Shown: positions 32,056 through 63,990, numbered from the stretch's first letter. The stretch: 64,000 bases of DNA from Pirellulales bacterium (GCA_963733035.1 CAVTBU010000004.1:352001-416000), one strand, 5' to 3'. Notes: generated by a model from the sequence alone, not told the origin. A program made the numbers and translations.

Positions 32056-32069
32056 TCGCTACCCTTTTC

Positions 32070-35507: not shown

Positions 35508-35601
35508 AGCCCGAACCTTTCACCGCCCACGACCGCCGCGCGACTTGGCTCCCTTGGCCAAACGGGGCGGTTGTTGCTCGCAGGAACCTACGCTTCTAGT
35601 G

Positions 35602-42715: not shown

Positions 42716-45219
42716 ACCTGCTATTCCTCATTGCGCGCGGCTGGCGGCAGCGTCCGGGACGCACCATTTTATCGGCAGCGAGCGTGACGATCGCCATTGC
42801 CGCCGTGCTGGGCACGGCCCTCGCGCAATCGAGCGTGCGGCGTGGAATGCGCGAACTGACGCGTGTCGTCGACAAATATCCGGCGGTCGAAGTCGTTTCT
42901 GCGTCAGGCGGCCGATTCGAGTCGTCTCACGCGCCAAATCTCTCGCAATTGCCAGGCGTCCAGAGCGTCGTTCCCGTCGTGGCCAGGGCCACCATGGCCA
43001 GGGTCAATGGCAAGCGATTTCGCACGGTGCTCGCGGGCCTGCCGGTGTCGAACAAGACGGCGTGGAAGACGCTCGCGGTGGCCGAAGGCCGCGCGTGCGA
43101 TCGGGAAGGCCAGGCAATACTCTCGTCCTCAGTGGCCAAGAGCATCGGGGCGGGGCTCCAAGATCGTGTCACCGTGATCACGCGACGGGGACCGCGCTCG
43201 GCCACAATCGTCGGAATCGCCGACGCCGGAGCTTTGGCAGCCTATGCGCCGGGGGCGGGCCTCGTCATGCCGCTGACGGACGTGCAAAGCTACTTCGGGC
43301 TCACCGGTCAGCTTGACCGCCTCCGTGTGTTGCTTCACTCACCGGATGACCGCCAGGAAGTTCTGGACGCCGTGGCCGGGCGGCTTCCTGACGCGTTAAC
43401 GGTGCAAGCCCCGTCAACACCGACGGAGATGATCGACACAACGTTGCGCTCCACCGAACTGGCATTGAGGCTGGCCGGGGCGCTATCGATGGCGATGGCC
43501 GCGTTCATTATCTTGAACACGTTACGTTTGAATTTTAGCGAACGGCGTCGCGATTTTGCCGTTGTCCGCGTGCTTGGTGCAACTCGAAGGCAACTGGTCG
43601 GACTACATCTACTCGAAGGTCTCTGTCTGGGGGCCATCGGCGCGATGGTCGGCGTCCCGCTCGGCTTCGTCGTGGGGCGCGGCCTGGAACACGCCATGGC
43701 CGCGCTACTCGGAATCGAAGCCATGACCGCCGAGACGCCCTTTGGCGTGATTATCTTCGTCTTGGTCTTGGGGCCCGCCGTCGCCGCGCTAGCCGCGCTG
43801 GTCCCGGCACTGCAAGCCCGCCGCGTGTCGGCCAGCGAAGCCATGGGAGAAACGGAACTTCGGCGCGCCGAGCACTTCCCCTTGTGGGCCGCGGGCCTGG
43901 GCGTGTTGTCCTGGTCTGTCGCCGTCACGTTGGTGCTCCTGGTCGTCCAAGGGCGACTTCCTCCCGAGGCGGCAATTCCGTCGGGTTTGTTGATGCTCGT
44001 GGCCTTTATTACGGTGATTCCCGCCGTCGTCAAACCGGTGGTGCGAGCCGCGGGCTGGGGGCTTTCGCCATGGTTGCGAACCGAAGGAGAACTGGCCGCC
44101 GATCAACTGTTGGCCCGCTCAACTCGCACCGGCCTGACTGTGGGAGTGTTAGTCGTGGCGCTTTCATCCGGCCTCGGATTGGGCACCGCGATCATCAACA
44201 ACGTCGACGACGTTCGCGGTTGGTATCGGCGGTCGCTCTCGGGCGACGTGTTTCTGACGAATTCGGCCGCCTCCGAGGAAACAACCGCCGCGCCAGGTCC
44301 TGGCTTAGGATCGCAACTGGCCGAACAGCCGGGTGTCCAACGGATTGTCGAAATACGCCTGCTGTCGGCCAAGGCGGAAGGGCAGCCAGGCATGTGCGTG
44401 GTGCGCAATTTTGATCCCGAGGTTGAACTTCCCTGGATACTCTCTCCGTCGGCGGAGACGGAACTGCGAGCGAAGCTCAAGGCCGGCGAAGTTGCACTGT
44501 GTGGCGTCATGGCAAAAAAAATTGGGCTCGCGCCCGGCGACCAATTGCGCCTAGAAATCCAAGGCCGGGTATTCTCGTTGCGGGTTGCCGCTTTGGTGAA
44601 TGACTACATGCTTGGCGGCCGCGTCGTTTACCTCGACCAAGCGGCGGCCGAAAAGTTGTTCCCGCTCGGTGCGGCCAGTTTCATGATCGTGCAGGCAAGA
44701 CCGGACACGTCGAGCGATGAGCTAGCCGCCACACTTGAAAAACGCTTCGACGGCCAGGGTATTGTCGTACAGTCGTTTGCCGAAATGCGCCATCAACTCG
44801 ACACGTTGATCGATGGCGTGGTGGCCGCGCTATGGGGCCTGTTGGCGGTCGGTTTTCTCGTGGGAGGTGTCGCCGTGAGTAACACGCTGACGCTCAACGT
44901 GCTCGAACAGACGCGCGAACTGGGACTTCTCCGCATCATCGGCATGACGCCCGGCCAAACGAGGCGTCTCGTCTTTTGCGAATCGCTGTTGCTCGGCCTG
45001 CTGGGAGCGCTGATGGGAACACTGGGCGGAATTACCACGGCCATTGTGATTCACTACTGCAATGAACCGGTACTAGGTCGTTCCATCCCGCTTCAGCTGC
45101 ATGGTTGGCTGTTGGCGGCAAATGCGGGGGGCTGCTTGCTGATTGCGCTTGCGGCTGCCTGGAGACCATGCGTCTGGGCGACGCGTCTTAACGTGCTATC
45201 AGCCATTGCGTACGAGTAG
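42712..45219 (+). CDS. ABC transporter permease, duplicated MacB_PCD/FtsX type
   Basis: ATGA overlap with the ATPase stop. Two FtsX-like repeats are visible (ERRRDFAVVRVLGAT, EQTRELGLLRIIGMT), ending AIAYE. Confidence 0.9.
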   Translation: MNLLFLIARGWRQRPGRTILSAASVTIAIAAVLGTALAQSSVRRGMRELTRVVDKYPAVEVVSASGGRFESSHAPNLSQLPGVQSVVPVVARATMARVNGKRFRTVLAGLPVSNKTAWKTLAVAEGRACDREGQAILSSSVAKSIGAGLQDRVTVITRRGPRSATIVGIADAGALAAYAPGAGLVMPLTDVQSYFGLTGQLDRLRVLLHSPDDRQEVLDAVAGRLPDALTVQAPSTPTEMIDTTLRSTELALRLAGALSMAMAAFIILNTLRLNFSERRRDFAVVRVLGATRRQLVGLHLLEGLCLGAIGAMVGVPLGFVVGRGLEHAMAALLGIEAMTAETPFGVIIFVLVLGPAVAALAALVPALQARRVSASEAMGETELRRAEHFPLWAAGLGVLSWSVAVTLVLLVVQGRLPPEAAIPSGLLMLVAFITVIPAVVKPVVRAAGWGLSPWLRTEGELAADQLLARSTRTGLTVGVLVVALSSGLGLGTAIINNVDDVRGWYRRSLSGDVFLTNSAASEETTAAPGPGLGSQLAEQPGVQRIVEIRLLSAKAEGQPGMCVVRNFDPEVELPWILSPSAETELRAKLKAGEVALCGVMAKKIGLAPGDQLRLEIQGRVFSLRVAALVNDYMLGGRVVYLDQAAAEKLFPLGAASFMIVQARPDTSSDELAATLEKRFDGQGIVVQSFAEMRHQLDTLIDGVVAALWGLLAVGFLVGGVAVSNTLTLNVLEQTRELGLLRIIGMTPGQTRRLVFCESLLLGLLGALMGTLGGITTAIVIHYCNEPVLGRSIPLQLHGWLLAANAGGCLLIALAAAWRPCVWATRLNVLSAIAYE

Positions 45220-45572: not shown

Positions 45573-46928
45573 ATGACCCAGCTATCGAACGGAAAAGTGT
45601 TAGAGACGACCACCACCGGTTCCGAGCGACTGCTAGCACGTGCTCGGCAAAGTATCGCCGGTGGAGACAACAGCACGATGCGTGTCCTGCCGTACCATCT
45701 GCCGCTGGTCGCTACTCGCGGCGAAGGCTCGCGGATCTGGGATGTCGATGGGCAAGAGTACGTCGACCTGAACATGGCCTATGGGCCGCTGATCTTCGGG
45801 CACCGACCGCCGGCAATCGTAGATGCCGTCGTGCGTCAAATCACTGAGAGTGGCTCGCAGCTCGGCTTCCCGGCCGAGGTCTCTGTGCGGGTGGCCGAGA
45901 AGGTCAAGCGGCTATTTCCGCACATCGACTTGCTGAGGTTTTCAAGCACGGGTACCGAGGCCATCGTGGCGGCGCTGCGGTTGGCGCGAACGTTCACGAG
46001 TAAGAAATACGTGATCGCATTTGAGGGCCATTACCACGGCTCGAGCGACAACATCTTCCATCGCTACCATGCACCGCTCGATGAACTACCCTCGGGGCCC
46101 TATGGGCCGGCCTTGCCGGGTACGTTGGGCATGAACGGAGCGCCGCGCGACGTGTTGGTCTGTCGCTGGAACTCCCCCGAGGCGCTGGAGCAGTGTCTCA
46201 ACGACCACGCCGGTCAAGTAGCAGCGGTCATCATGGAACCGGTCATGGGCAACGGTGGCGTTGTTCCGCCAAACCCTGACTTTTTGGACATCGCCCGCGC
46301 GTTGACCAAGGAGCACGAATCCTTGTTGATCTTCGACGAGGTGATTACGGGCATGCGGGTGGCCGCGGGGGGAGCTCAGGAGCGATTCGGCGTTGAGGCC
46401 GACATCACGATTCTCAGCAAGGCCATGGGAGGCGGGTTCCCCATTTCAGCCCTGGGCAGCACGCGTGAGATCATGCAGTGCATTGCGGAGGGCAAGCTGT
46501 TCCACGGCGGCGTTTATTCGGGCAATACCCTGGTGATGGCCGCCGCCGACGCCGTGCTGGACGAAATGCACCGCGACGGCGAGGCAATTTATGCTCATCT
46601 GGAAAGCATTTCGACTGCCTTGGCGACGGGAGTGGACGAGATTTTCAATCGGTTGGGAATCCCGCATCAGGTACAATATGTGGGCCCGATGATCTCGATG
46701 CTGTTGACCCATGAAGACGTCGGCCCGCTGACGAACTACCGCGAAGTGCGCGCGAGTTGCGACTTCGACAAGTTCATCCGCTTCCAGCATCAGTTGCAAC
46801 GATCGGGCGTGTACTTTCACCCGAACCAATTCGAGCCGATGTTCCTCTCCACCGCGCACTCGCATGCCGACATCGCCAGTGTCCTGGATCGGATCGAGGA
46901 CGGTGCTCGCGCCGTGCTGTTGGCCTGA
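45573..46928 (+). CDS. Class III PLP-dependent aminotransferase (GSA-aminomutase-like)
   Basis: YVDL..AYGPLIFGH, STGTEA, FEGHYHG, EPVMGN, LIFDEVITG, SKAMGGGFP (PLP Lys) and GVYSGN motifs. Confidence 0.92.
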   Translation: MTQLSNGKVLETTTTGSERLLARARQSIAGGDNSTMRVLPYHLPLVATRGEGSRIWDVDGQEYVDLNMAYGPLIFGHRPPAIVDAVVRQITESGSQLGFPAEVSVRVAEKVKRLFPHIDLLRFSSTGTEAIVAALRLARTFTSKKYVIAFEGHYHGSSDNIFHRYHAPLDELPSGPYGPALPGTLGMNGAPRDVLVCRWNSPEALEQCLNDHAGQVAAVIMEPVMGNGGVVPPNPDFLDIARALTKEHESLLIFDEVITGMRVAAGGAQERFGVEADITILSKAMGGGFPISALGSTREIMQCIAEGKLFHGGVYSGNTLVMAAADAVLDEMHRDGEAIYAHLESISTALATGVDEIFNRLGIPHQVQYVGPMISMLLTHEDVGPLTNYREVRASCDFDKFIRFQHQLQRSGVYFHPNQFEPMFLSTAHSHADIASVLDRIEDGARAVLLA

Positions 46929-46932
46929 GAGC

Positions 46933-48396
46933 ATGGACCTGTCGCCACAACCGATCCTGGACGCAGCCGAAAGGTATCGGGGCACGTTTGTCGATCTCGA
47001 TGCCGGGCTCGTCGTCGACGCGGCCGATTTCCATGCCGCGCGTTTCCAACTCGCCGAACGCCTCAGTTCGCTCGGGCTATCTCCTGGCGAGCGGGTGGTT
47101 GTCTCGGTCGGAAATGGCCCCCAGTTCGTGGTCACGCTGCTTTCGGTTTTAGCTGTCGGCGGATCGCCACTGCTGGTGCATGCGAAAACACCGGCCGCGG
47201 AGCTGAAACGGACGGCACTGCGGTATGGCGCGCATCTGGTTCTCAGCGATGAATGCCCGCTCGCGGATCTTGAAGCCGCGGGCTTGCCAATTGCTGCCCT
47301 GTCAGCCGGCGAGTGGCTGCGACTTGGCGCGGGTAAAATCGATCCTGGCTTATCGGGCTTCAACGGTGGCTACGTCGAACTGGCCGGAGTGCCACTTCAT
47401 CCCACATCGGGCACGACGGGAGTTCCCAAAGTTGCCGTGCGGCCAGGGCTCGCCGCGACAGAAGAGGCCCGGCATTACATCGAAACAATCGGCATTACCG
47501 CCGACGATACCATCATGGCCATCGCGCCGATGTGCCACGCCTACGCGTATGGGATGTGCGTCATGGTGCCATTACTAAGTGGCGCGTCGATCGTCTCGAT
47601 GCGCGGCTTCCAGGCGAGTAAGGTCTTTCAAGCGGTCGGCGATCATGCGGTCACGATTCTGCCCGCCGTCCCGGCGATGCTTGACGTGCTGCTATTCGGG
47701 GCCGGAGATCGCCTGCGCGGTGCCGCGCGGACCGTGTTATCCGCCGGCTCCCCGCTGTCCGAGCGAACGGCCGAACGTTTTCACGGGAAGTCGGGCCTGA
47801 GGGTCCGGCCGCTCTACGGCACGACGGAAACCGGCGGCATCACGGTCGCTCCCCCGGGCGAGCTGCAGATCGCCGGCAGCTGCGTCGGCCCGCCGATGGA
47901 AGGCGTCGAAGTCCAGGTTCGCCCCCACCCGGCCCATGCCGATTCGCAGCCCGGCGTCGGCAGACTATTTATCCGATCGAGTTCCATGATGGCCGGTTAC
48001 CTGGGGACTGACGGCATCGATGCGTCCATGCTGACCGATGGCTGGTTCGAGACGGGCGATTTGGCGCGGCTCGACGATTCGGGTTTCATTCACCTGTTGG
48101 GGCGCGAAGCCGAGGTCATCAACGTCGAAGGACTGAAAGTCATTCCCTCGGAAGTCGAGGAAGTTATCGCGGCGATTCCGGGAGTCGTCGAAGTCAAGGT
48201 GTATGCCGGAACGCGTAAGAGCGGGGGGCAGTACATCAAGGCGGCGGTCGTCGTCGATAATGGATTGGACGTGCAGGTCATCCGCGCCCACTGCGAACGA
48301 AATCTCGTCTACTACAAACGGCCGGAGCGGATTCTGCCGCTCGACGCCCTACCACGCTCGGCTGCCGGAAAGATCCTTCGCGAGCAGTTGCCGTAG
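46933..48396 (+). CDS. ANL-superfamily AMP-dependent acyl ligase/synthetase
   Basis: TSGTTGVPK, YGTTE, TGDL, GR..EVINVEGLKV.PSEVE and LPRSAAGKI motifs. ATG 46933 lies 4 nt after the previous stop. Confidence 0.9.
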   Translation: MDLSPQPILDAAERYRGTFVDLDAGLVVDAADFHAARFQLAERLSSLGLSPGERVVVSVGNGPQFVVTLLSVLAVGGSPLLVHAKTPAAELKRTALRYGAHLVLSDECPLADLEAAGLPIAALSAGEWLRLGAGKIDPGLSGFNGGYVELAGVPLHPTSGTTGVPKVAVRPGLAATEEARHYIETIGITADDTIMAIAPMCHAYAYGMCVMVPLLSGASIVSMRGFQASKVFQAVGDHAVTILPAVPAMLDVLLFGAGDRLRGAARTVLSAGSPLSERTAERFHGKSGLRVRPLYGTTETGGITVAPPGELQIAGSCVGPPMEGVEVQVRPHPAHADSQPGVGRLFIRSSSMMAGYLGTDGIDASMLTDGWFETGDLARLDDSGFIHLLGREAEVINVEGLKVIPSEVEEVIAAIPGVVEVKVYAGTRKSGGQYIKAAVVVDNGLDVQVIRAHCERNLVYYKRPERILPLDALPRSAAGKILREQLP

Positions 48397-48409
48397 CCCG
48401 GGAGTCGAC

Positions 48410-49258
48410 ATGCAATTGGGCAATTGGCAACTCGACACGATCAACGGCGGCCTGTTTCGATTGGACGGCGGCGTCATGTTTGGCGTCGTGCCGCGAACCA
48501 TCTGGAAAACCGTCGCGCCGCCCGATGAGATCAATCGCATCCAGTGCGCCAACAACTGCGTGTTGGCCCGCGATGGAACGCACACGGTGCTGATTGATAC
48601 CGGTTACGGTGGCAAATTCGCGCCCCTCGACCGGCGGTTCTACGCAATGGAAGAAGGAGCGCCGCTACTGAAGGGTCTGGCCGAACTCGGCGTGGCACCC
48701 GACGAAATTGACACCGTCGTTTTCAGTCACTTGCACTTCGATCATGTCTGCGGTGCCACGGAATTTGATTCGGCTGGTCGGCGTGTGCCAATCTTTCCGC
48801 GGGCCCGCCATATCGTCGGCCGCACCGAGTGGGAAGACGCAACCTCCGGTTCGCCGGAACTCGAAACGGCGTATCCGATGGAAGACATTCTGCCACTCTA
48901 CGAAGCGGGACTAATGCTGGTCGTCGAAGACCGGCAGGAAATCGTGCCGGGCTTGCGCGGTGAGGTCACTGGCGGTCATACGCGCGGCCACATGGCGCTG
49001 TTTTTCGAGTCGGGGGGCCAAACAGCGGCCTATCTCGGAGACATCTGCCCCTCGACCGTCCACCTGCGACGAATGTGGCACCTGGCCTACGACACCTATC
49101 CGCTCGACACGCGTCGCCGCAAACCCGAGTTGTTGGCCCGGGCCGTGGACGAGCAGTGGTGGATCATGTGGAATCACGATCCGCGTGTGAGTGCCAGCCG
49201 GGTCGTGCGCGATCCGAAGCGCGAGTTCGTCCCCATCGAGGCTCACCCGAGGGCCTAG
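48410..49258 (+). CDS. MBL-fold metallo-hydrolase, YtnP-like (lactonase/amidase-type)
   Basis: GGAG RBS and ATG at 48410. FRLDGGVMFGVVP, LIDTG, SHLHFDH, GGHTRGH, GD and the C-terminal HD are present. Confidence 0.9.
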   Translation: MQLGNWQLDTINGGLFRLDGGVMFGVVPRTIWKTVAPPDEINRIQCANNCVLARDGTHTVLIDTGYGGKFAPLDRRFYAMEEGAPLLKGLAELGVAPDEIDTVVFSHLHFDHVCGATEFDSAGRRVPIFPRARHIVGRTEWEDATSGSPELETAYPMEDILPLYEAGLMLVVEDRQEIVPGLRGEVTGGHTRGHMALFFESGGQTAAYLGDICPSTVHLRRMWHLAYDTYPLDTRRRKPELLARAVDEQWWIMWNHDPRVSASRVVRDPKREFVPIEAHPRA

Positions 49259-49476: not shown

Positions 49477-50960
49477 ATGTCCTACCTCCTGCTGACAGGT
49501 TCGACAGGTCTCGTTGGCCGCCATTTGCTAAGAGACTTGCTGGCAGCCGACGTTCCGGTGGCCGCCATGGTTCGCCCCGGCAAGGGCGCCGCCACACTCG
49601 AGGGCATCATGGGCCACTGGGAACAGCAGGCAGGGCGGCGCTGCCCCGACCCGTGGTCATCGGGGGCGACCTGTGCCTGGAGGAGGTCGTACCCGACGAG
49701 GCCCAGCGACGCTGGGTGGCGACACACTGCGACCGGATCTTGAGTTGCGCCGCCAGCATGACGTTTCGCGAAGATAAGCGCGGCGAGCCGTTCCGCACGA
49801 ACGTCGAAGGCACGAAGCATCTGCTCGAGTTGTGCCGCACGAGCGGAATCCGACACTTTCACCAGGTGTCAACCGCCTACATCTGCGGCCTGCGGCAGGG
49901 CAAGATTCTCGAAAGCGACATCGACGTAGGCCAGACGCTCGGCAATGTCTACGAGCAGAGCAAGCTAGCGGCCGAAAAGCTTATTCGCTCGGCTGACTTC
50001 CTTGATCAAAGATCGTTCTATCGTCCCGCCAGCGTGGTCGGCGACTCGAAGTCGGGCTATGTCACCAGTTTCCACGGCTTCTACTTGCCACTGCAACTGG
50101 CTCATGCGATGGCGGGCCGCGTGCCGGTGCGCCAGATGGACGAGCGGTTTTTCGCCAAGCTGGGCTTGCAGGGTCACGAAGGCAAGAATCTCGTGCCGGT
50201 CGATTGGTTGTCGGCGGCCATCGTGTATCTCGTGACGCATCCGGAGCACCACGGCCAGACCTACCACTTGGCCAATTCCGAGCCGGTGCCCGTGGTCGAG
50301 ATCCAGCGGGTGATCGCGGAAGCCATCGAGCGCTACTATCCAAAGCCGCTGGCCACGACGATCTCCGAACAGGAGTTGCAAGCCCTGGAGGGGATGTTCT
50401 ACGAATACATGACGATCTACCAGTCGCATTGGCGCGACGATCCAAAGTTCGACCTGACGAACACCCGCAGGGCATTGCCCCACCTGCCGTGTCCGCGAAT
50501 GACGTACGACGTGCTAATGAAGATTTCGCGTTATCCGGTGGAGCGGAATTTCATCGCTCCGCGCCACGAGAAACCTGCAGTGGCCTGCGACGTCGCTGAG
50601 CAGTTGGGTGAATTACTTGGGGCATCGCGCCCGACGAATGCGTCTCAAGTTGGTTTGCAGGTCACCGGTCCGGGCGGGGGCCAGTGGCAATTGCATCTGG
50701 CCGGCGGCCTCGTTTCGGCGGCCGAGCGTGGGCTGCCGACCGCGAGCGCGGCCGGTTTTCATTTGAACTCCGCCACGTTTCGTTCGCTGTTGGCGAGGGA
50801 ACTGTCGGTTGACGAATCGATCAACTCCGGCCGCCTGGTGGTCCAAGGCCCCAGCCAACGGCTCGGAGAATTGAAGAGCGCGCTTGAGCAAGTCGTATCT
50901 TCTCGAACCGGTGACCATCGGACCGTCCAAGCCATAAATGCCCAAGCGATGAAAGCATAG
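49477..50960 (+). CDS. Thioester/acyl reductase (NAD_binding_4 extended SDR) with C-terminal SCP2-like domain; frameshift at ~49638
   Basis: LLTGSTGLVG is in ORF 49477. CAA, NVEGT, VSTAY, YEQSK and RPASVVG are in ORF 49653. The C-terminal GLQVTGPGGGQW...SGRLVVQG is SCP2-like. One missing G restores GRALPRPVVIGGDL (~494 aa). Confidence 0.85.
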
Positions 50961-51150: not shown

Positions 51151-54100
51151 ATGGCCGATCGCTACTCTCCGCATCAAACTCCGCTGGCCATTGTAGGCAT
51201 GGCTTGCCGCCTACCGGGCGCCGACAATCTCGATCAATATTGGCGGATGCTCGTCGAAGGGCGTCACGCCGTGGTGGAGTTGCCCCCCGATCGCCTTGAT
51301 CAGGACATGTACTTCGATCCTGAAGTCGGCGTTCGCGGCAAGACCTATTCGAAGCTCGGCGCGATCATCAACAGCCGTACGGTCGACTTCAACCGACTAC
51401 CAATCGACCCCAAGCTGGCCGCCAGCGTCGACATCGCCCACCTCCTGATGTGCGACGTCGCCGCTTCGGCCCTGCGACATGCCGGCATCGACCCGTTCAA
51501 CGTGCCGCTGCGCAACACGGGCGTCTACGTCGGCCACGCTCAGGGCAGCACACTCGCCGGCGATCAAACCTATTCGAGTTGCATGCAGGAAGCGGCCGAG
51601 TTCCTGCGCGAAACGCCCGCGTTCCGTCAGCTGCCCCCGGCCGAACAGGAAGCCCTGATTCGCGAACTCGTTGAGCGCGTTCGTGCATCACTACCACATC
51701 CCACGGTGGAAACACCGGACGTTTCGGCCAGCCTGGTAGCTGGCACGATCAACAAGGCCTTCGGCCTGAACGGTCCCTACGTGGCAATCAACTCGGCGTG
51801 TGCCTCGTCGCTACAGGCAATGCTGTTGGGCGCTGCGCGCTGCAACTCGGCCGAGTTGACATGGCAATCGTCGGCGGCGCATCGGACTGCAAGAGCGATT
51901 CGCTCGTGCTGTTTTCGAACGCTCGGGCCATGAGCGCCACCGGCACGCGTCCCTTCGACTCAGAGGCCGACGGCCTGATCTGCGGCGAAGGCTACGTGGC
52001 CGTGGTCATGAAAACGCTCAAGCGGGCGCTCGACGATGGCGACCGGATCTGGGCCGTCGTCCGCGGTTTGGGTGTCTCCTCGGACGGGAAAGGCAAAAGT
52101 CTTTGGGCCCCTCGCAAGGAAGGCCAGACCAAGGCCATGGAGCGGGCGTACCGTGAGGGACTCGACGTTGGCGATTTGGACTATATCGAAGCGCACGCCA
52201 CGGCGACCAAACTTGGCGATGCCACCGAACTGAACACACTGAAAGACATCCTGGGCAAACATTTTCCGCCGGGCAAAAAGATTCCGATCACCAGCGTCAA
52301 GGCAAACATCGGCCATACGCTAGAAACGGCCGGGATTGCCGGCGTGATCAAGGCCGTGCTCGCGATCAACAACGAGACCGTCGCGCCGGCCATCAACATC
52401 AACCAGCTCAATACCAACATCGACTGGGCCAACTCTCCGGTCTACGTGCCGACCACGGCCCAACCGTGGCCCAAACGGGCCGACGGCAAACCGCGCCGCG
52501 CCGGTTGCAATGCATTCGGCATTGGCGGCCTGAACATGCACGTCGTGGTCGAGGAATTCCTCGAATCCAGCCGCGCGCTGGCAGCCGCCGTGCCCGGGCC
52601 ACCCATGCAAAACCTGTCGGCCGACGAGCAGGCGATCGCCGTGATCGGCTTGGGTTGCGTGTTGCCGGGCGCCGAAAACCCCGCGGCATTTTGGAATCTG
52701 CTGGCCGCCGGAACCGACCCCAAGTCGCCCGTGCCGGCCGACCGCTGGCGCCCAGAGGTGGCGATGAAAGGCGCGCCGCACCCGACGCCCGAACCGAATT
52801 CGCTCGTGGGCGGCTTTATCTCGGGATTCGAGTACGACTGGAAGCGTCACAAGGTTCCGCCCAAGCAAGTGCAGCAGGCAGACCCGCTGCAGTTCATGCT
52901 GCTGGAAGCCACGGATCAGGCGATGCAGGACGCCGGCTACGACCAAAAGGCATTCAACCGCGAAAACGTTGGCGTGGTAGTGGGCACGGAATTCGGTGGC
53001 GACTTCTCGTTTCAATTGCAACTTGGGCTACGTCTGCCCGAACTCGAACGGCACATCGAAGCACTGCTCACCAAACGCGGCCTCCCCGTCGAAGACGCCA
53101 GGCAGGCCGGCAAGGACTACGCCACGGCGATGCTCAAGAAGTGGCCCGCACTCATTGACGAAACCGGAAGCTTCAGCACCAGCTCACTCGCCTCGCGGAT
53201 CGGCAAGACCTGGAACCTGATGGGCGGAGCCGCGGCAATCGACGCCGGACAGTCGTCCGGACTCGCCGCACTGTCGACGAGCGTCGACATGTTGCTGGCC
53301 GGCGATTGCGACCTGATGATTTGCGCCGCCGGACAGCGCCGCATGGGTTGGCCCATCTACGAGAGCCTGGCCCTGGGTGGCGATCTGGCACAAGGCCAAC
53401 CTCGATCACCGCTTGACGCCGATGCCCAGGGTTGCGTGCCGGGCGAAGGTGTCGTTGTCGTACTGCTCAAACGACTGGCCGATGCGAAGCGCGACGGCGA
53501 CCACGTCCATGCAATCTTGCGCGGGGTTGGCGGTGCCCACGATCACAATTCCTGGGGCAAGGCGCTGGAACTGGCCATGGAGCGATCGTTCGCTCCAAAT
53601 GCAAAATCGTCCGACGTGGCCGTGATGGAACTCGATGCTTTGGGAGACAAGGATGCGACGGCCGACGAAGTGCGCGCCGTGGCCACCGTCTACGGCAAGG
53701 ACGGCCGTCAGCAGCCGCTGATGCTCAGTTCGGCAATCGGCCAGCTGGGCAATACACAAGGCGCCGTATCGCTTGTGTCGCTATTAAAGGCCGTTCTGGA
53801 AGTCAGCCATGGCGAATTGCCCCCACCGGTTGGCATGCAATCGCCGGCGCCGTTCGTCAACCAGCACGGCAACATTGTTTCCGCGCCGACCGCCAAGACG
53901 GCAATCGACCTGACCACGGCCGATGGTCGTCGATTGGCCGCCGTCGGAACCTGCTCCCGAGGTTTGGCCTACCACGCAATCTTGGAGTATGGCAGTCGCG
54001 TCGAAGTGAAAGCTGGAACTCCAACTCCGCAAGCGGCCGCGGCACCGGCAACAGCGAAAGCCGTTTCGACGGTCGACCTGAGAGAGTTGGAAAAATTCCT

Positions 54101-57100
54101 CATCAACTTCGTCGTCGAACAAACGGGCTACCCGCCGGAAGTCGTTGAGCTCGATGCCGACCTCGAAGCCGACCTGGGGATCGACAGTATCAAGAAGGCG
54201 CAGATGTTCGGCGAGTTGCAAGAGTACTTCGACGTCACGCCAACCGACGACCTGACGCTCGATGATTTTCCCACGCTGCGGCACATCGTCGAATTCCTCG
54301 CCAAAGCTCCGACCAAGGAGGGCGCGCCCGTCGCCACGACGGCCGCGGCGTCTCAAATAGCACCGCCTCCGCAGCCCGCACCTGCGCCGATAGCGCAGCC
54401 AGGGGCTCCGGCGCCCGTTGCGCAGCCGGCGACCTCGGCAACGGCCAAAGATGCATCGGTGAACCTGGCCGAGCTCGAGCAGTTCCTGATCAACTTCGTC
54501 GTCGAACAAACGGGCTATCCGCCGGAAGTGGTCGAACTCGACGCCGACCTGGAAGCCGATCTGGGCATCGACAGTATCAAGAAGGCCCAAATGTTCGGCG
54601 AGCTGCAAGAATACTTCGATGTTACGCCGACCGACGACCTGACGCTGGATGATTTCCCAACGCTCCGGCACATCGTCGAATTCCTCGCCAAAGCGCCCAC
54701 CAAGGAAGGCGCGCCGGTGACGACTGCGGCGTCGGCTACGCCACCTGCCGTGGAACCGGCCCGACCACGGCCTGCGGCGATGCAAGCTCCCGCCCCCAGC
54801 GTGGCGGCAACGGCTGTCGCACCCTCCCCTGCAACGACGGCCCCCGCAGCGCAACCTGCGCCCAGCGCTGCCGCCCCAACTGCCGGCTGGCAAATTTGTC
54901 GCTTCGGCGCGGCCGACCCAGCGACGTTGCGTGCCTTGCTCACGGCGGCTCAGCAGGACGCCTCCGCCTTCCAGGCCTCTTCGCGGCGGAAATTCCTCGC
55001 ACCAGACACGTTCCGCCTGGCCGTCGTTGCCGACAGTGCCGCCACACTCAACACTCGGTTGGCCACGGCCGTCAAACAGATGGACAATCCGGCCGCTCAA
55101 ACCGTCCTCGAACAACAAGGCGTGTTCTATCGACAGGCCAATCCCGACACACGAATTGCCTTCCTGTTCCCTGGCCAGGGGTCTCAGTATACAGGCATGC
55201 TGCGGCAACTCGTTGCCGACGTGCCGGCAGTCGCCAGGCAGCAGGCCGAAATCGACGCCACGATGACCCGGCTCGGATTTCCAACCTGGGCTCAGCTCGC
55301 CTGGGATGAGGCGTCGCCACTGGGCAAGGATGTCTGGACAACGCAAATTTCGATGTTGTTGGGCGATGTGCTCGTGCTTGCGGCACTTCGCGACCGTGGC
55401 ATTCAGCCCGACCTCGTCGCTGGGCATAGCTACGGTGAGTACCCGGCGCTGTTGGCCGCTGGTGCCTGGAATCTCGAACAAGCGATTCGGGTGACGCGAC
55501 GCCGCTGCGAGTCGATCGACGCCCAGCCGGGCGGTCAAACCGGAATGTTGGCCACCACGGCGACGCCAGAGATCGTCGAAAGTCTGACACCGCGCCTGAA
55601 CGGCCCGGCCTACGTCGCCAATCACAATGCCCCCGATCAAACGGTGGTCGGGGGAACGCTCGCCGCATTGGCCGAGCTCGAGCCAATGCTGCAAGCCGGG
55701 TTGTTCGAAACCCGCAAACTCGCAGTTCCCAGCGCATTCCACACACCCCTGATGCGCGAGGCCGCCGACCTGTTTGCCCGGCACATTGCCGCTGAGAAGT
55801 ACGCGATGCCGCGAGTGGCCACGTACAGTGTGGCAAACAACGAAGCGGTGACGGATCCAGTACAGATCGGCAAGAACCTGGTTGCCCATTTGACGACGCC
55901 GGTTCGCTATGCCGATCTAATTCGCAAGTTGGCGAGCCAGGCACCCACGGTGTTCGTCGAAGTGGGTCCGCAGCAAGCGCTGAGCCGTTTGAACCGGCGC
56001 ATTCTGCCCGCGCACGAACTGACCGGCATCGCGGCCGACAATCCGTCGCGCCCCGGCATCGAGCAATTGGTGCGCGTGCAGGCGCTTTTGGAATGCTGCG
56101 GCGCATTGGATCGACCGCGAGCAGAAAACACTCCGACAGCGGCACCACCCGCCTCGTTAGCCAAGGGTCAGATTTGGCACTTTGACGCCACGTCCCGGCG
56201 CCGCGATAAGATGCGAGCTTCGGCCAACAAAGGTGCCAAACCCGCCGCTAGCCGCGCTGCCCCGCCGGCGGCACCGCCGAATCCGGCTCCGTCTCCAGCA
56301 CCGGCGCCGGTGGCTCAAACTCCGGCCCCGATCCCCGCTCCGGCGCCAGCGCCGGCACCTGTCGTGCAGGCCCAGCCGCAAGCGGCACCATCGCCCCCGT
56401 CGCCACCACCAGCGGCACAGCAGACGACGGCGGTCGACACGTTGGAATTGGAGAAGTTCCTGGTTAACTTCGTCGTCGATCAGACCGGTTATCCACCGGA
56501 GGTCGTCGAACTCGACGCCGACCTGGAAGCCGACTTGGGCATCGACAGCATCAAGAAGGCCCAGATGTTTGGTGAGTTGCAGGAGTACTTCGACGTCACG
56601 CCGACCGACGATCTGACGCTCGATGATTTCCCCACGCTACGCCACATCGTGGAATTTCTGGCCAAGGCGCCCACCAAGGAAGGCGCGCCGGTTTCGACCG
56701 CAGCCACCCCTTCTCTGACCGCGCAAGCGCCGCCCGCTCCGCAACACGCTGCCGCGCCGGCAGCCGTGCAGCCCCACCCGACAGCCGCGGCGACCAGCGT
56801 GCCCGCCACCGGCTCCGCACCGTCCGTCGATACCTCGGAACTCGAAAAGTTCCTCGTCAACTTCGTCGTCGAGCAAACCGGCTATCCGCCGGAGGTCGTG
56901 GAACTCGACGCCGACCTGGAAGCCGACTTGGGCATCGACAGCATCAAGAAGGCCCAGATGTTCGGCGAACTACAGGAGTACTTCGACGTCACGCCGACCG
57001 ACGATCTGACGCTCGACGATTTTCCCACGCTGCGGCACATCGTGGAGTTTCTGGCCAAGGCGCCCACCAAGGAAGGCGCGCCGGTTTCAACGGCGGCAAG

Positions 57101-60100
57101 TGCTCCCGCGCCAGCTCCCGCTGTAACAGAGTCGAACGGCGCGGCCGGCGTTTCAGCTTCCGCCTCGGCGCAGATCGACGTACTGCACGTTAGCGGAACG
57201 CCGTATGAGCTCGGCTACCAGCAGGGCGCGGAAAAAAAAACGGAAATTCGAGCCCTCCTGAAGCGCGTCGCTGATCTCACCGACGGCGATTGGAGTGAAT
57301 TGCCGATTCCGGCCGAGGCGCGCAAAAATCCCGAGCGGTTCTTTAGCCCCAACCAATGGGAAGAACTGCGGGGGATGGCCGACGCCGTGGAAGTGCCGCT
57401 GGGCAACCTGGCGGCGCTGAATCTGGCCGTGCTCCCCGACTTCGCCGCCAGCGCCGCGCAGGTGGCGCTGGTCACCCACGTTGGCACGCAAATCCAGGTG
57501 CTGCATGGGCTGGCGGGTGAACTTTCGCTGCCGCCGGCCCTCACGGAAATGCTGACACCCCTGGTGCTCGTTCGCGAGCCGTCGCAGGGGTGGGCCTGTG
57601 CCACGGTCAGCTTCGCCGGCGTAATTGGCAGCCTGGTCGGACTGAACGGAAACGGCCTGGCCGCATCGACAGGCACGCTGATCGACACCGTAGCCACCCA
57701 GAACGGCAGCGCAGCCAGTTCGACCGTGAGGGTCGACGGACTGCTGCAGCGCAACGATACGTTGGAACATGCGGCCGAGGGTTTGCGGCATACGCATGCG
57801 ACCCGTGGCTGGACGGCCTGCCTCAGTCATCAGGGACAAAACCGAGTGGCGGCCGCCGAACACAACGGCTCGTCCTTCACCCAACAGTTTGCCGAGCAGG
57901 CCGTGTTCGCCGCGAACCATAGCGTGCTGCATTCGTCCGGCACGGCTGCTCCGGCCGCGTCGGTCGAACGTTTCAACTGGCTCAAGGCTCAATTGTCTTC
58001 CGCCCAACAGCCGCGCGATGCCGGAGAACTGTTGACCATGCTCGGGCGGATGCCGTCGCGGGGGTCGCTCCGCTTGTTGGCCGTGGTCGATGCGTCGCGC
58101 GGCGACCTGCTTGTTGAATGCGGCTCGGTTCGCGAACGCGTGCACATTGGAGCGTTGCTGCCGACAGCGCCCGCCGGCGATCCCGCGACGTTTCGCTCCA
58201 ACGGAACCGCACCGGCTCCCATAGCCAAACAAGCCCCGGCAGCGCCAGCACCTGCGCCGACCTCGTCAGATCTGAAGCAGCCGGCGGAAGTCGATCCGGA
58301 AAGCATGCGGTTCGTACTTCGCACAGTGCCGAGCCCGTGGCCGCAACAGCCCGCTGACTTCCCCATTTGGAAAGGCGCCGTGGCGATCCAGGGAGAAAAC
58401 CCGCTGGCCGACGCGCTGTGCGAACGAATCACCGCCACCGGAGCGACCGTGGTGCGTCTCAGGGAAACTGGTTCGACCGAGGCCGCCGTGGCAGAACTCG
58501 AGCGGCATTGGCAGCAGCAACCCATCACGCATCTCTTTCTGACCACGCTCCGCGATGAGCAGACACCCGACCGCACAAATGCCGAGGGCTTTGTGCAGGT
58601 CTGCAACCGCCAGGTGATGCTTCCCTACTTTCTCTGCCAGCGGCAAATGCAACTCGCCGGCGATGCCAAACGGCTGAGCGATTGCACCGTCGTGGCGGCA
58701 ATTGATCTGGCGGGCGACCTCGGTTTTTCGGGCAACGTCGCTTCGCCCGAGTCGGGCTTCGTCACGGGGCTGATGAAGTCCCTGTTGCTCGAATACCAAA
58801 TCATGCGCGAGCAGAAGGGCTTTCTGGCCAAAGCCATCGACGCCCCAGGCAGCGAACCCGTCGCGGACCTGGCCGCCAACATTTGTCGCGAACTGGCCCA
58901 TGGCACGAACGACTATGAGGTCGCATTTGTCGGTGGAAATCGGTATCTGCAAGTTGGACTGCCCGTCGCGGCCGAGATGCAATCGACCAGCGACGTCCGG
59001 CCCGGCGGCACGTGGGTACTCACCGGGGGCGCCCGCGGCATCACGGCCGATTGCGGCCTGGAATTGGCAAAACGCTTCGGCCTGAAGCTTCATCTGCTTG
59101 GCACGACTCCGCCGCCGACGCTCGACCCGGCGTGGCGCAATCTCGACGAGCAACAAACCGCCGCCCTGCGCGGCAAGGTGATCATCGAGGCACGCCAGAA
59201 CGGACAGAAGCCCAACGAAGCCTGGGCTCGAGTGGAAAAGGCGATCGAGATCGACCGAAACCTGCGGGCATTCGCCGATGCCGGCATCGACGCGACGTAT
59301 CACGTGTGCGACGTGACGGATCGCGCCGCGCTGGCCCGCGTGCTCGATGACGTCCGCCGCAAGGACGGTCCAATCGAAGGTATCCTGCACGGCGCCGGAA
59401 TCGAGCAATCTTGCCGCTTCGAAAAGAAGACGCCGCAAGCCGTGCAAGCGACGGTTGGAGCCAAGGTGGTTGGCGCCTACTACCTGATGGAGCTCACCCG
59501 CGTAGATCCGGTGAAACATTTCATCGGCTTCGGTTCGATCAGCGGGCGGCTCGGCAGCAACGGCCAGACCGACTATGCGGCCGCCAGCGACATGCTTTGC
59601 AAGTTGATCGGTTGGTACCACACGCAGCGACCCGAATGTCACGCCATCGCCTTCCATTTCCATCCGTGGGATGGCGTGGGCATGGCCGCCAGGCCCGACA
59701 CGGTAGCCATGCTCAAGGCGAGCAACCTGCGACTCATGCCCAAGCGCACCGGGCTGGCCCATCTGCTCCGCGAATTGTATGCCAGGCCAGCGGATACCGA
59801 GCTGATGATCACCGACTGGGAGTATCACCAGCGCTATTACGGCACGACCTTCACCGAGACCGCAAAACGCACCGACCTGCTTGGCGCACCCGGCCAAGCC
59901 GTGCCAACGTTCGGAGCGCCGCGGCAGGATGGCAGCCAACAGCCTGCCACGCCACATATTGCCGACCGCGTGGTGCTCCGCATGGCCGACGCACCTCTGC
60001 CTGGCGCTGGTAGCCAGCCGCTGCCAGCCTCGGCATTTTTGCTCGGACAGAATTCCGATGCCGACGCATTGGCCCAAGCGCTTACGGCTCGCGGTGTGAG

Positions 60101-62432
60101 CGTCGTGCGGCTTCCGGCCGAAGGAGATGCCAACGCGGTATGTGCGGCTCTGGAAAAATCGTATGAGCAGAGTCCAGCCCGCTGTCTTTTCCTTTGCACG
60201 GCCCGCGACGCGGAAGCCGCGAACCTGAACGACCGAGCAAGTATCAGCCAACGGGTTCAACGCGGCGTCTACCTGCCCTATTGGGTCACGCGGCGTTGGT
60301 TCCAACTGGTCAGCAAGAACCCCGAGCCCGCAACCGTCGTCGCGGTCACGTCACTTGGCGGCGACTTTGGTTTTGGTAATCCCGTGCCAAGCCCCGAAGG
60401 AGGCTCGTTCACCGGCCTGCTCAAGTCGATCTTCGTTGAAGACGCCCGCTACGACCACGCCCGCTTCAAAGTAAAAGTGATCGATGCTCCCGCCAATGAG
60501 CCGCCAGCCCAGCTTGCGGACGCCGTTTGCCAGGAGCTTGGCGGCAGTGGACCGGAAGTGGAGGTCGCCTGGTCTGGCGGTAAACGTCAGGTGGTGGCCG
60601 TCTCGCGCGAGCCGGTGGAGAATCTACCGCTAGGCGATCTACCGCGCGGCGGCGTATGGGTGATCACCGGCGGCGCCCGGGGCATCACGGCTGCAACGGC
60701 GCTCGAACTGGGCCGCCGGTATGGCCTGAAATTGCATTTGCTCGGCAAAAGCCCAGCGCCCGAGGCGAACCCGCCGTGGCGAAACTGCACCGACGAGGAG
60801 CTCAAGAAGATCAAGGCCGAAATCGTTCGCAAGGCCACGCTCGAAGGGCGTTCGCCCACGGACGATTGGGACCGCGTTCGCAAGGATCGGGAGATTCAAG
60901 AGTCGCTCGACAAATTTGCAGCGGCCGGCGTCGCGGCGACCTACCACTCGTGCGACGTTGCCGACTGGGACGATATCGACCGCGTGCTCAAGAACATCCG
61001 CGCGGCCGATGGTCCCATCTCCGGAATTGTGCACGGTGCGGGCTACGCCAAGAGTTTTCGGTTCGGCACCGGCGTGGGTAATAAACTCGAGGCGACGATT
61101 GCGCCCAAAATCGACGGCACGCTGGCGCTGATGCACCTGACCGCGGGCGACCCGCTCAAGTATTTCGTCGGCTTTGGTTCACTCAGCGGCCGTTTCGGCG
61201 GCAACGGGCTCAGCGACTACGCGGCCGCCAACGACGCTCTTGCGAAGATCTGCGGCTGGTTTCGGCAGCGACGGCCTGAGTGCCACACGGTTTGCTTCCA
61301 CTGGCAAACCTGGGACGCCGTCGGTATGGCGCTGCTGGCAGACGGTGTCGGGATCACCAAGAATGCGTTCAAGATGGACTTCATTCCGCCGGAAGAAGGC
61401 GTTAACCACCTGATCGACGAACTTCGCGCCGGTGCGCCAGAGAGCGAAGTGCTGATCACCGACGGTTTTTTTCAACGACAGTTTTATCCTTACGATTTCG
61501 AGCGGCCGCTGCCCGGTTCGAGCGGCGCCTCGGCGGCGGCACCGCTTCGAGCACCCGCGGAAAAACCATCCTCGCTCGGTCCGCTACTTTCGGCCTGGCA
61601 GCCAGGCTCCGTCGCGGCGGGCACCGCGCGGATTGACTTCGATCCCGAGTCCGATCCTTTTCTGAAGGAACATCGGCTGAAGCAAAAGCCTTTCCTGCCG
61701 GGAGTGGTCGGCGTTGAAGCCCTCTGTGAAGCGGCGCGTTGTGCGCTGGGTCGCGATGAAATCCGCGAGATTCGCAACGTCCGGATTGTTAATGGCATGT
61801 CGTTTCCGACCGGACCACTGACGGCGCGCGTCGAAGTAACGCCGACAGAAAGCGGGCTCGGCTGCCGGTTGCTCACCGAGCAGCGCGACCGGCAAGGCCG
61901 CTTGATCGATGCCAACCGTCTGCACGTCGAAGGTGTGGTACCCACGGTAAGTAGCGGCCACCCAATCGCAGCCGACCCGCCCGGGCGACCGCCGCTGGGC
62001 TGGTTCCCGCATGCCTATCCGGATGACGGACTGTTGTATCACGGGAATGGGCTCCGCTGCCTGAAAGCCTGCGCCTATCAATACGACGGTGGCTGGGGAC
62101 AAATACTTGCTCCGCCGCTCGCCGAATTGGCCGGACCGCGAGGCGGCGAGGGCTGGATCACGCCGATCGCCGTCATGGACGCCTGCGTGGTGGCCTGCGG
62201 CAGCTTCCTGTTCCTGCAGTTTGGCGGCGTCGTCGAAGTGCCTTACGAGTTCGAACACATGCAGATCGCCAGGCATCCCCGGTCCGGCGAGGAATGCATG
62301 GTCCGACTCTATTTCCGCGAGCGAGACGAACGACACAGCCGCTTCGATTTTACCCTCTTCGGTGACAGCGACGAACCACTAGTGAAAGTCGTTGGCTATC
62401 GCACGATTCGAGTCGGCGCGGGAGGCCGATAA
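51151..62432 (+). CDS. PUFA-synthase-like iterative type I PKS (~3760 aa): KS-KS(C>Q)-ACP-ACP-AT-ACP-ACP-C45-like-KR-KR-DH; frameshift at ~51835
   Basis: KS1 has [27 protein letters not shown] and KANIGH. KS2 has [12 protein letters not shown] and DAGQSSGL. There are four LGIDSI ACPs and an AT with FPGQGSQ, GHSYG and SAFH. Two KRs carry TGGARGIT and DYAAA, and the DH has [11 protein letters not shown]. One missing base restores LLGARALQLG. Confidence 0.92.
54087..54332 (+). repeat. ACP repeat 1 (246 bp)
   Basis: Encodes [16 protein letters not shown]...LGIDSIKK...[10 protein letters not shown]. Confidence 0.95.
54474..54719 (+). repeat. ACP repeat 2 (246 bp)
   Basis: Same 82 aa as repeat 1 except K3Q. 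Confidence 0.95.
56448..56693 (+). repeat. ACP repeat 3 (246 bp)
   Basis: Same 82 aa as repeat 1 except I6V and E11D. Confidence 0.95.
56841..57086 (+). repeat. ACP repeat 4 (246 bp)
   Basis: Same 82 aa as repeat 1 except I6V. Confidence 0.95.
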
Positions 62433-62436
62433 CGCA

Positions 62437-63159
62437 ATGAGCGTCACACGCACGCGCTACGCTCGACTCTCCGAACTACCGCCGGATGCGGCTGCGCGCT
62501 GGCTTTCAGCGGACGAACGCCACGCGTACGGCACGCTACGTTCGCCAGAGCGACGCACCACCTGGCTGGCAGGTCGATTCGCGGCAAAGCGATTGCTTTT
62601 GGAAATGCTTGCCGAAGAGGGCGGCGAGCCCCAACCGGTCGCGGCCGATGAGATTCACATAGAATCGCGATCGTCGCGGTTTGGCCATGGCGAACGGCCC
62701 CTGTTGTATTTCCGCGGTCGTCCAATGTCCTACGCCATTTCGATTGCCCACACGAACCGAGGCGTCGTCGTGGCAGCAAATCTATGCGCCGAGGTTGCGC
62801 TCGGTGTCGACTTGGCACCGACTTCAACGTCGACACGCGGCTCGCTTAATTGGACGTTCACGGCTGCCGAGCGGCGCTGGCTGGCAACGACCCATGCCGA
62901 GCAATTCCAGGCAGAACGTCTCTGGACAATGAAAGAGGCCCTCTACAAAGCATGCCAATGCGGCGAGGGCTTTGCACCTCAGAATATCGAAGTGGTTCCT
63001 GGCCTTCCGCCACGCTATCCGTCATTCGATTCGGCCAACTTGCGACAACTCCAATGTTGGCAAGTCGACGGTCATATCGCGTGTTTGGCCATTGTCAAGA
63101 ATGTTCACAAAGCCTTGCCGACGAATCCGGCGAACGACATGCTTCGCTCGGCCGCGTGA
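62437..63159 (+). CDS. Sfp-type 4'-phosphopantetheinyl transferase
   Basis: WLAGRFAAK, ISIAHT, LGVDL and LWTMKEALYKA motifs. ATG lies 4 nt after the PKS stop. Confidence 0.88.
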   Translation: MSVTRTRYARLSELPPDAAARWLSADERHAYGTLRSPERRTTWLAGRFAAKRLLLEMLAEEGGEPQPVAADEIHIESRSSRFGHGERPLLYFRGRPMSYAISIAHTNRGVVVAANLCAEVALGVDLAPTSTSTRGSLNWTFTAAERRWLATTHAEQFQAERLWTMKEALYKACQCGEGFAPQNIEVVPGLPPRYPSFDSANLRQLQCWQVDGHIACLAIVKNVHKALPTNPANDMLRSAA

Positions 63160-63225: not shown

Positions 63226-63990
63226 ATGATTGATCTCACCGGAAAAACGGCCCTCGTTACCGGCGGTTCCCGAGGCATTGGCCGTGCCTGTGCCACGCGA
63301 TTGGCGGAAGCGGGCGCGGACGTTGTGCTCAACTACGTCACGAGTTCGGCGGCCGCCGACGAAGTGGCCGAAGTTGTCCAGGCGATGGGCCGCAATGTGG
63401 CGGTCGTCAAGGCCGACGTGAGCGAACGGGACGACTGCGAGTCGATGATGCAGTTCATCGGCGAGACGTTTGGCAAGCTCGACATCCTGGTGAGCAACGC
63501 TGCCACGGGCGGGTTTCGGCCGATGCTGGCCATCACGCAGAAGAACTTCGAATCGACGATGAAGACCAACGTGATGGCCCTGATCCACCTGGTGCAGGCC
63601 GGCTACAAGTTGTTCCAGAAAGCCGACGGCCGTGCCAAGGTCGTAGCCATCTCCAGCCACGGATCGCACATGGCTCTGCCAATGTACGGAGCGGTGGGTG
63701 GTTCCAAAGCCGCTCTGGAAAGCTTCGTGCGGCACTTCGCCCTCGAACTCGGCGGTCAGGGCATCAATCTAAACATCGTGAAAGCCGGGCTCGTCGATAC
63801 CGACTCCACCCGGAGAATCCCGTACGCCGAACAGTTGTTTGCCGCCCGCGGAATGCGCAGCATGACCGGCGATCGGTACCTGCTGGCCGAAGATGTCGCC
63901 AACTGCGTGCTGTTTCTGTCGAGCCCGCTCAGCGATATGGTGCAAGGCGAGACACTGACGGTCGACGGCGGAGCAGCCGTGCACGCTTAG
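63226..63990 (+). CDS. FabL-like enoyl-ACP reductase (SDR)
   Basis: TGGSRGIG, then SNAATGGFRP (cf. NNAASGVLRP of Bacillus FabL) and a Y-x6-K motif, YGAVGGSK, instead of the classical YxxxK. Confidence 0.8.
   Translation: MIDLTGKTALVTGGSRGIGRACATRLAEAGADVVLNYVTSSAAADEVAEVVQAMGRNVAVVKADVSERDDCESMMQFIGETFGKLDILVSNAATGGFRPMLAITQKNFESTMKTNVMALIHLVQAGYKLFQKADGRAKVVAISSHGSHMALPMYGAVGGSKAALESFVRHFALELGGQGINLNIVKAGLVDTDSTRRIPYAEQLFAARGMRSMTGDRYLLAEDVANCVLFLSSPLSDMVQGETLTVDGGAAVHA

Follow-up and report, generated by a model that had tools for sequence, protein, structure and literature searches.

A planctomycete-family lipid megasynthase with a PfaC-type condensing pair, carriers ahead of the acyltransferase and a nucleophile-less C45-fold domain in a Pirellulales bacterium

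A single gene at positions 51151-62432 of a 64,000-nucleotide stretch of Pirellulales bacterium DNA (GCA_963733035.1 CAVTBU010000004.1:352001-416000; this whole stretch is called the window below) encodes a type I megasynthase in which a PfaC-type pair of ketosynthase (KS) and chain-length factor (CLF) is fused to a PfaA-type body. We classed this protein as a "secondary lipid" synthase that resembles the polyunsaturated fatty acid (PUFA) synthases, a variant within a large planctomycete family rather than a unique enzyme. On the common planctomycete plan it carries three derived traits: a second ketoreductase (KR) of single origin, a C45-fold domain without a nucleophile, and acyl carrier proteins (ACPs) ahead of the acyltransferase (AT). 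We are all but certain of this architecture and of the family placement. The product is probably a long-chain amino or hydroxy lipid.

The domain order on the gene is KS, CLF-type KS, two ACPs, AT, two ACPs, C45-like domain, KR, KR and dehydratase (DH). A sequence-only reading of the window had proposed these domains in this order, and both were confirmed with Pfam and NCBIfam, with coordinates that agree within about 100 nt. Its start for the linker plus AT (54885) differs from the AT boundary at 55095 because the linker was included. The matches comprised the N- and C-terminal halves of the KS, which is split over two open reading frames (ORFs), the second KS, four PP-binding domains, Acyl_transf_1, C45_proenzyme (NF040521), two KR domains and PKS_DH_N/PS-DH. 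The features of the gene are as follows.

51151-62432, + strand: synthase gene, PfaA/PfaC-fusion type I synthase of about 3,760 codons, in two frames in the assembly
51151-52583, + strand: condensing KS; Cys codon at 51799, His codons at 52194 and 52314
51834..51835, + strand: frame-change site, with one base fewer than in a relative
52620-54002, + strand: CLF-type second KS; Gln (53250), Asp and Asn replace Cys, His and His
54067-54343 and 54454-54730, + strand: ACP1 and ACP2, ahead of the AT; Ser codons at 54186 and 54573
54795-56057, + strand: KS-AT linker and malonyl-type AT (AT 55095-56057; Pfam match 55161-55985)
56428-56704 and 56821-57097, + strand: ACP3 and ACP4; Ser codons at 56547 and 56940
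57162-58217, + strand: C45/Ntn-hydrolase-fold domain without nucleophile; Ala at 57453-57455 in the Cys place of Gly-Cys
58233-59852, + strand: KR1 unit, structural half and Rossmann half; TGGARGIT from 59022, Ser 59535, Tyr 59574
59886-61499, + strand: KR2 unit, paralogue of KR1; TGGARGIT from 60666, Ser 61179, Tyr 61218
61560-62429, + strand: polyketide synthase (PKS)-type DH; His 61671 within HxxxQxxxxP, conserved Asp 62178

To place the protein, 5.8 billion proteins were searched for homologs, which gave 1,462 matches. The family counts of domain content given here come from the best 120 of these 1,462, which are distinct proteins onto which the window's domains were mapped. The general plan of the family is KS-CLF-AT-ACPn-(C45)-KR-(KR)-DH. 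Two KR units are present in 63 of the 120 homologs and a C45-like domain in 94, mostly from Pirellulales. The sequence-only reading had recognised the window's order from no characterised synthase, and the literature agrees so far as it was covered: no characterised member of the family and no synthase of this order was found in literature searches that covered few subscription journals. The uniqueness that this implied did not survive. Five other proteins have exactly the same order, and the plan KS-CLF-AT-ACPn-C45-KR-KR-DH is common in Pirellulales. Loci confirmed by tblastn number 217. Carriers of the cluster include Blastopirellula marina DSM 3645 and strains of Bremerella and Bythopirellula, and an acidobacterial homolog (P0066) reads KS-CLF-AT-ACP-C45-KR-DH.

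The C45-like domain was also followed by itself. Its profile matched 161 representative clusters at E <= 1e-30 among 1.84 billion, and PKS domains lie beside it in 116 of 142 newly listed representatives. Among genomes of the same taxonomic order, 66 of 301 have a match to the domain (21 of 32 in the bacterium's own family), some of these matches being short stand-alone C45 frames. Among the literature results listed, no paper brought C45 or Ntn-hydrolase together with PKS or PUFA synthase. PKS and PUFA terms are absent from a review of planctomycete metabolism (PMC12078418), planctomycete and C45 terms are absent from a JACS Au 2026 survey (PMC13291983), and a third source (PMC13190842) gives antiSMASH class counts only.

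Two further variants were seen among the one-KR relatives that carry a Gly-Cys pair in the C45 domain. The subgroup P0075-P0097, one member of which is named for Maioricimonas, has two terminal DH matches (KS-CLF-AT-ACPn-C45-KR-DH-DH). At loci L060, L066 and L068, matches to an acyl-AMP ligase query fall within the synthase match at 22-23% identity, which suggests from sequence that an adenylating domain is fused to the synthase there.

In the condensing half, the KS has the catalytic Cys-His-His that 111 of 112 KS domains of the family retain. The second KS of the window has Gln, Asp and Asn at these places, and Cys is absent from 111 of 112 family CLF domains; we therefore take it to be a non-condensing CLF-type partner. 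A KS with C/H/H followed on the same chain by a Cys-less KS-like domain (Q/D/N) is the arrangement of PfaC, and the KS-CLF didomain of a near relative is colinear with the solved PfaC KS-CLF chain 6RIW, residues 155-727. The PfaC-like pair of the sequence-only reading was thus borne out. The AT has the motifs GHSYG (Ser at 55428) and AFH (His at 55740), which we take to be malonyl-specific, and it is FabD-like (167.6 bits). At the level of sequence, the KS, the AT, the ACPs, KR1, KR2 and the DH are all predicted to be catalytically competent.

The four ACPs have an identical core protein sequence, and such a repeat on both sides of the AT could arise by misassembly. This was ruled out. At the DNA level, identity to ACP3, taken as the reference, is no more than 82-90%; these are real, selected copies and no collapsed repeat. 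Moreover, in a tree of CLF domains, the 16 proteins with ACPs ahead of the AT, the window's included, make up a single clade that contains no others (split support 0.972). The placement of ACPs ahead of the AT is a local rearrangement inside the ACP array.

The two KR units are 42% identical over 534 residues. Both have the NADPH motif TGGARGIT together with the Lys, Ser and Tyr residues, all invariant in a 16-protein alignment, and by sequence both look active. The LDD and Trp signatures, which report stereochemistry in the KRs of modular PKSs, were sought, and neither KR has them. In a tree of KR domains, the second-place KRs, all 63 of them, fall into a single clade (support 0.987), so KR2 was gained once. 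Of the first-place KRs, 59 of 63 group with 8 single KRs (support 1.0), and KR1 is inferred to be orthologous to the single KR of the one-KR relatives. The DH motif reads HxxxQxxxxP in the window compared to a consensus of HxxxGxxxxP, with His and Asp kept.

The C45-like domain, proposed in the sequence-only reading as an added N-terminal nucleophile (Ntn) hydrolase, held up as a fold and failed as an enzyme. Its match to NF040521 (E 3.4e-22, 79.2 bits) lies under the curated cut-off of 85, and the Pfam scan of the window protein gave no PF03417 match, while one is precomputed for some relatives. An AlphaFold model built from 26 sequences reached a mean pLDDT of 87.8, and its best Foldseek match was the precursor of isopenicillin-N acyltransferase, a member of peptidase family C45 (2x1c, E 5.7e-16, TM 0.68). 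The mature enzyme (2x1d) came next, then acid ceramidase and NAAA. The Ntn-hydrolase fold is thus real and is the same as that of isopenicillin-N acyltransferase. Unlike that enzyme, the window domain is embedded in a megasynthase and has no Cys at the nucleophile place. A sequence match between the two (E 0.008) aligns the Cys of the enzyme, which is Ala in the precursor mutant 2x1c, with a non-nucleophilic Leu; in the family alignment the same place is taken by Ala. The window has Ser-Ala where 31 of the 94 C45-bearing homologs have Gly-Cys, and this Ala (57453-57455) lies directly ahead of the central strand of the model.

Loss of the nucleophile follows the number of KRs among the 94 C45-bearing homologs: 29 of 31 Gly-Cys proteins have one KR, while 48 of 58 Cys-less proteins have two. 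In near relatives of the window protein, the pair at the nucleophile place is SA, NA, NC, NS, DG, SS, DS or GA, so that no replacement nucleophile is conserved. The C45-like domain is also the least conserved of all: pairs of sequences are on average 35% identical and 6% of the columns are invariant, compared to mean identities of 46-71% for the KS, CLF, AT, KR and DH. Since the nucleophile is gone, no replacement is conserved and conservation is lowest here, we conclude that the domain is a pseudoenzyme in the window protein and should not be counted as an additional activity.

There is a small chance that the domain is catalytic after all, through another nucleophile or as a non-covalent acyltransferase or thioesterase that loads or offloads the chain. 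Its fold is well predicted and resembles the lipid amidases acid ceramidase and NAAA, it is kept in 56 two-KR proteins, and several residues of the pocket region are invariant in forms with and without the Cys (e.g. His115, Asn162 and Trp217 of the domain). Ntn hydrolases work through a free N-terminal nucleophile, which is released by self-cleavage at the Gly-Cys bond. This bond is absent from the window protein, the window's clade has no conserved Ser, Thr or Cys at or beside the nucleophile place, and no other domain evolves as fast. The invariant residues leave a non-nucleophilic function possible, and the pseudoenzyme may have been kept as a scaffold or an acyl-binding module.

As the sequence-only reading had implied, the gene changes frame. 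It lies in two + strand ORFs, 51151-51933 (260 aa) and 51798-62432 (3,544 aa). The Cys codon of the KS (51799) is in the first frame, which turns to nonsense about 35 nt further on, and the second frame resumes the KS sequence. In a soil metagenome run (X1), a contig of about 91% identity carries an additional C after 51834, the one base that the window lacks, and the window read with this C gives the family consensus around the site. Intact relatives of the synthase are 3,752-3,802 aa long.

An assembly error is the most likely cause of the frame change. Alternatively, the cluster could be decaying, with genuine frame changes that make the synthase and the neighbouring thioester reductase (TR) pseudogenes in the source organism; we give this only a slight probability. 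The TR gene is also split, near 49620-49650 (NAD_binding_4 profile positions 1-47 at 49477-49650 and 65-258 at 49653-50960), so that two core genes each lack a single base, at sites 2.2 kb from one another. The recorded product of the window DNA (P0003, 3,500 aa) begins 3' of the break, and site 51834 is uncovered by any read of the source organism: window-identical contigs from three runs, all of them small-share runs, span 51300-51450, 51849-51998 and 51911-52061, never 51834. Unrelated genes are apparently split too, however. In the treS-mak-like (trehalose-synthase/maltokinase-like) gene at window positions 12049-15413, Alpha-amylase profile positions 1-227 fall in 12049-12909, and positions 327-446 together with Malt_amylase_C, Mak_N_cap and APH fall in 12669-15413. 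The true hemL, outside the window (G000:C4:432082-433340; 560.7 bits, above the cut-off), is in two frames that cover profile positions 1-45 and 35-422. The role of hemL is in haem synthesis, and its split indicates indel errors in the assembly. Because the TR, the treS-mak-like gene and hemL are split alike, we consider the assembly indel-prone rather than the cluster decaying. Past the break, 3,544 codons stay open with all catalytic motifs intact, and in a genome of the same genus the synthase frame is open over 3,769 aa.

The synthase was next compared with known systems. It shares with PfaA and PfaC (6RIW, Moritella ORF10) the KS-CLF pair on one chain, a PfaA-like AT, tandem ACPs, KR and C-terminal DH, and an adjoining gene for an Sfp-type phosphopantetheinyl transferase (PPTase). 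The PfaA-like body of the sequence-only reading was upheld by TIGR02813 (omega_3_PfaA), to which the 3,544-aa part aligns with 946.1 bits and the 260-aa part with 47.5. In contrast to PfaA and PfaC, the window synthase is one polypeptide, has ACPs ahead of the AT, and contains a C45-fold domain and a second KR. The system lacks PfaB, no FabA-type DH was found in the synthase or its neighbours, and the bacterium's own genome (92% complete) yielded neither a TIGR02814 match for a PfaD-family enoyl reductase nor another Pfa-like megasynthase. The synthase falls outside PfaA because its score does not reach the cut-off of 1010.1, PfaD and FabA-type DHs are missing and the domain order is different.

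The same observations bear on whether the protein is an ordinary synthase of PUFAs or olefin precursors, which we regard as very improbable. The score of 946 bits against the PfaA model and the tandem ACPs, as in PUFA synthases, are what such an enzyme would show, and Shulse and Allen proposed their Type I cluster, whose carriers include one planctomycete, as a possible source of precursors for the olefin hentriacontanonaene (PMC3098273). The score is nevertheless below the cut-off, the protein has no FabA-type DH pair, the genome has no match to the PfaD family, and the conserved partners are instead a reductase, a transaminase and an acyltransferase.

Among catalogued clusters, 'Type R' (Shulse and Allen 2011; PMC3098273) comes closest by its published description, and the existence of this simpler relative also counts against the implied uniqueness of the window synthase. 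As described in the accessible text of that paper, Type R consists of a single pfaA homolog, KS-MAT-CLF-ACP(3-6)-KR (MAT, malonyl acyltransferase), with a PPTase gene after it, in Acidobacteria, Elusimicrobium and Roseiflexus. That text leaves the product uncharacterised and lists no Pirellulales genome (PMC3098273). Compared with this description, the window synthase has the same content of KS, CLF, MAT, tandem ACPs and KR, and a PPTase gene follows directly at 62392-63159. Its domain order differs, and a C45 domain, a second KR, a DH, and TR, transaminase and acyltransferase partners go unmentioned for Type R in the accessible text (PMC3098273).

The genes around the synthase were compared with those of its relatives. 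Neighbours were counted within 10 kb of the synthase at 36 relatives' loci, each holding at least 28 kb, and the order of the neighbouring genes varies between lineages.

41960-45219, + strand: ATP-binding cassette (ABC) ATPase and MacB/FtsX-type permease, possibly an exporter; synteny shared with the closest relatives, L004-L007 and L025
45573-46928, + strand: class-III aminotransferase, HemL/GntE-like paralogue; beside 13 of 36 relatives' synthases
46864-48396, + strand: acyl-AMP/CoA ligase; in 23 of 36 loci
48203-49258, + strand: metallo-beta-lactamase (MBL)-fold hydrolase, YtnP-like; in 20 of 36 loci
49477-50960, + strand: stand-alone TR, frame-split; in 29 of 36 loci
62392-63159, + strand: Sfp-type PPTase; in 25 of 36 loci
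63226-63990, + strand: FabL-like short-chain dehydrogenase/reductase (SDR), candidate trans-acting enoyl reductase; in 35 of 36 loci
just beyond the window end, opposite strand (convergent): condensation-fold protein that matches the WS/DGAT and PapA5 families; acyltransferase in 23 of 36 loci

The best score of the SDR is to FabL (256 bits, under the cut-off of 328). That the cluster transaminase is the housekeeping HemL was ruled out, as a separate gene elsewhere in the genome exceeds the hemL cut-off.

Taken together, the synthase and its neighbours would form one iterative, highly reducing lipid megasynthase system in which reductive release of the chain is followed by amination and acylation, an explanation that we favour with some reserve. 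The KS-CLF would extend a starter iteratively with malonyl units, and this starter may be a fatty acid that the adjacent acyl-AMP/CoA ligase has activated. KR1, the DH and the FabL-like SDR acting in trans would carry out the reducing cycle, and KR2 may work at particular chain lengths or positions and leave hydroxyl groups. The stand-alone TR would free the chain as an aldehyde, which the HemL/GntE-like transaminase would convert to a primary amine. The PapA5/WS-DGAT-like acyltransferase could then join either the amine or an alcohol with another acyl chain carried on an ACP, and the ABC/MacB-type pump may carry the lipid outward. A long-chain amino-lipid in particular is a tentative assignment.

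Several points weigh against this explanation. Every step past the identification of the domains is drawn from homology and gene neighbourhood. The transaminase is present at only 13 of the 36 loci, so amination may be clade-specific or lie outside the pathway. Since the SDR scores under the FabL cut-off, it could be a ketoreductase. The coverage gap at 51834 and the residues that stay invariant in the C45-like domain, both given above, count on the same side, as does the limited sampling behind the acyltransferase pattern described below.

The system nearest in logic is the zeamine synthase (Zmn10-14 and Zmn19), described in PMC5811116 and PMC13291983. Like the window system, it couples a PUFA-like iterative core to an additional KR and a free-standing TR, includes a transamination step and has the amine acylated by a separate condensing enzyme (PMC5811116). 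It differs in being multi-subunit and PfaA/C/D-like, with an aminotransferase fused to a PfaD-like subunit, a partner nonribosomal peptide synthetase (NRPS)/PKS line and a proteobacterial host, and a C45 domain is unmentioned in the text available (PMC5811116). If the window cluster encoded a polyamine synthase of this kind, the transaminase would act repeatedly on beta-keto intermediates and produce a polyamino chain. We judge this improbable, even though every zeamine activity has a counterpart at the window locus. No PfaD-family protein was found in the genome, no NRPS/PKS partner line was seen beside the cluster, and only 13 of 36 loci have the transaminase within 10 kb. The transaminase here is a free HemL/GntE-like enzyme, and its named relative GntE acts on an aldehyde.

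Mycobacterial phthiocerol dimycocerosate (PDIM) assembly follows a related logic, with a fatty acyl-AMP ligase (FAAL), the iterative synthase Mas and PapA5. By analogy, the acyl-AMP ligase, the iterative reducing type I synthase and the stand-alone condensation-fold acyltransferase of the window system, with its PapA5 and WS/DGAT matches, would be comparable. The resemblance is one of logic only: the architecture of the PDIM synthase is different, and PDIM assembly has no TR or transaminase.

Returning to the release-by-reduction pathway, the neighbours differ with the state of the C45 nucleophile. The acyltransferase gene was found at 1 of 8 loci with a Cys-bearing C45 compared to 15 of 17 Cys-less loci, the MBL hydrolase at 1 of 8 compared to 13 of 17, and the transaminase at 1 of 8 compared to 8 of 17. 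This pattern comes from 25 related loci with 10-kb flanks and one tblastn query, taken with no phylogenetic correction, and is a lead only. In the Gly-Cys one-KR relatives, the C45 domain would probably be an offloading acyltransferase, a job that the stand-alone acyltransferase may have in the window's lineage. A bolder version, which we think unlikely, is that the ancestral Gly-Cys C45 cuts its own synthase at a point between the carriers and the reducing domains, and that the new N-terminal Cys hands the finished chain to an acceptor. In the two-KR lineage of Pirellulales the C45 domain would have died and its job passed to a PapA5-like acyltransferase recruited with the transaminase and the MBL hydrolase, giving a new class of long-chain N-acyl amino-lipids typical of these planctomycetes.

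The synthase is frequent in planctomycetes of the source order, and the cluster therefore marks a probable unknown lipid or lipid-like metabolite in an ecologically widespread group. The family also offers a natural experiment in megasynthase evolution, in which a nucleophile was lost, a KR was duplicated once and carriers moved ahead of the AT, all on one plan. The near-exclusive distribution of the Cys-bearing C45 and the stand-alone acyltransferase suggests an offloading mechanism so far undescribed in PKS and fatty acid synthase systems. The significance would be greater if the product is a new lipid class, or if the Cys-bearing C45 cleaves or offloads the synthase. As B. marina DSM 3645, Bremerella and Bythopirellula are cultured carriers, the cluster is testable in culture.

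Other genes were seen in and around the window. Upstream of the cluster, positions 28603-36891 on the - strand hold two tandem resistance-nodulation-division (RND) pumps and a membrane-fusion protein, and a third RND pump with a fusion protein lies just downstream of the cluster (L003:3406-8084). At 24032-26062, also on the - strand, a gene encodes a 676-aa protein in which SdrD B-like and carboxypeptidase-regulatory-like domains come after an animal haem peroxidase domain (E 1.1e-163). Positions 10096-23211 hold a run of glycogen and trehalose genes: besides the treS-mak-like gene, they encode several CBM48-bearing proteins of the alpha-amylase family and a glycogen debranching enzyme (GDE_N/GDE_C).

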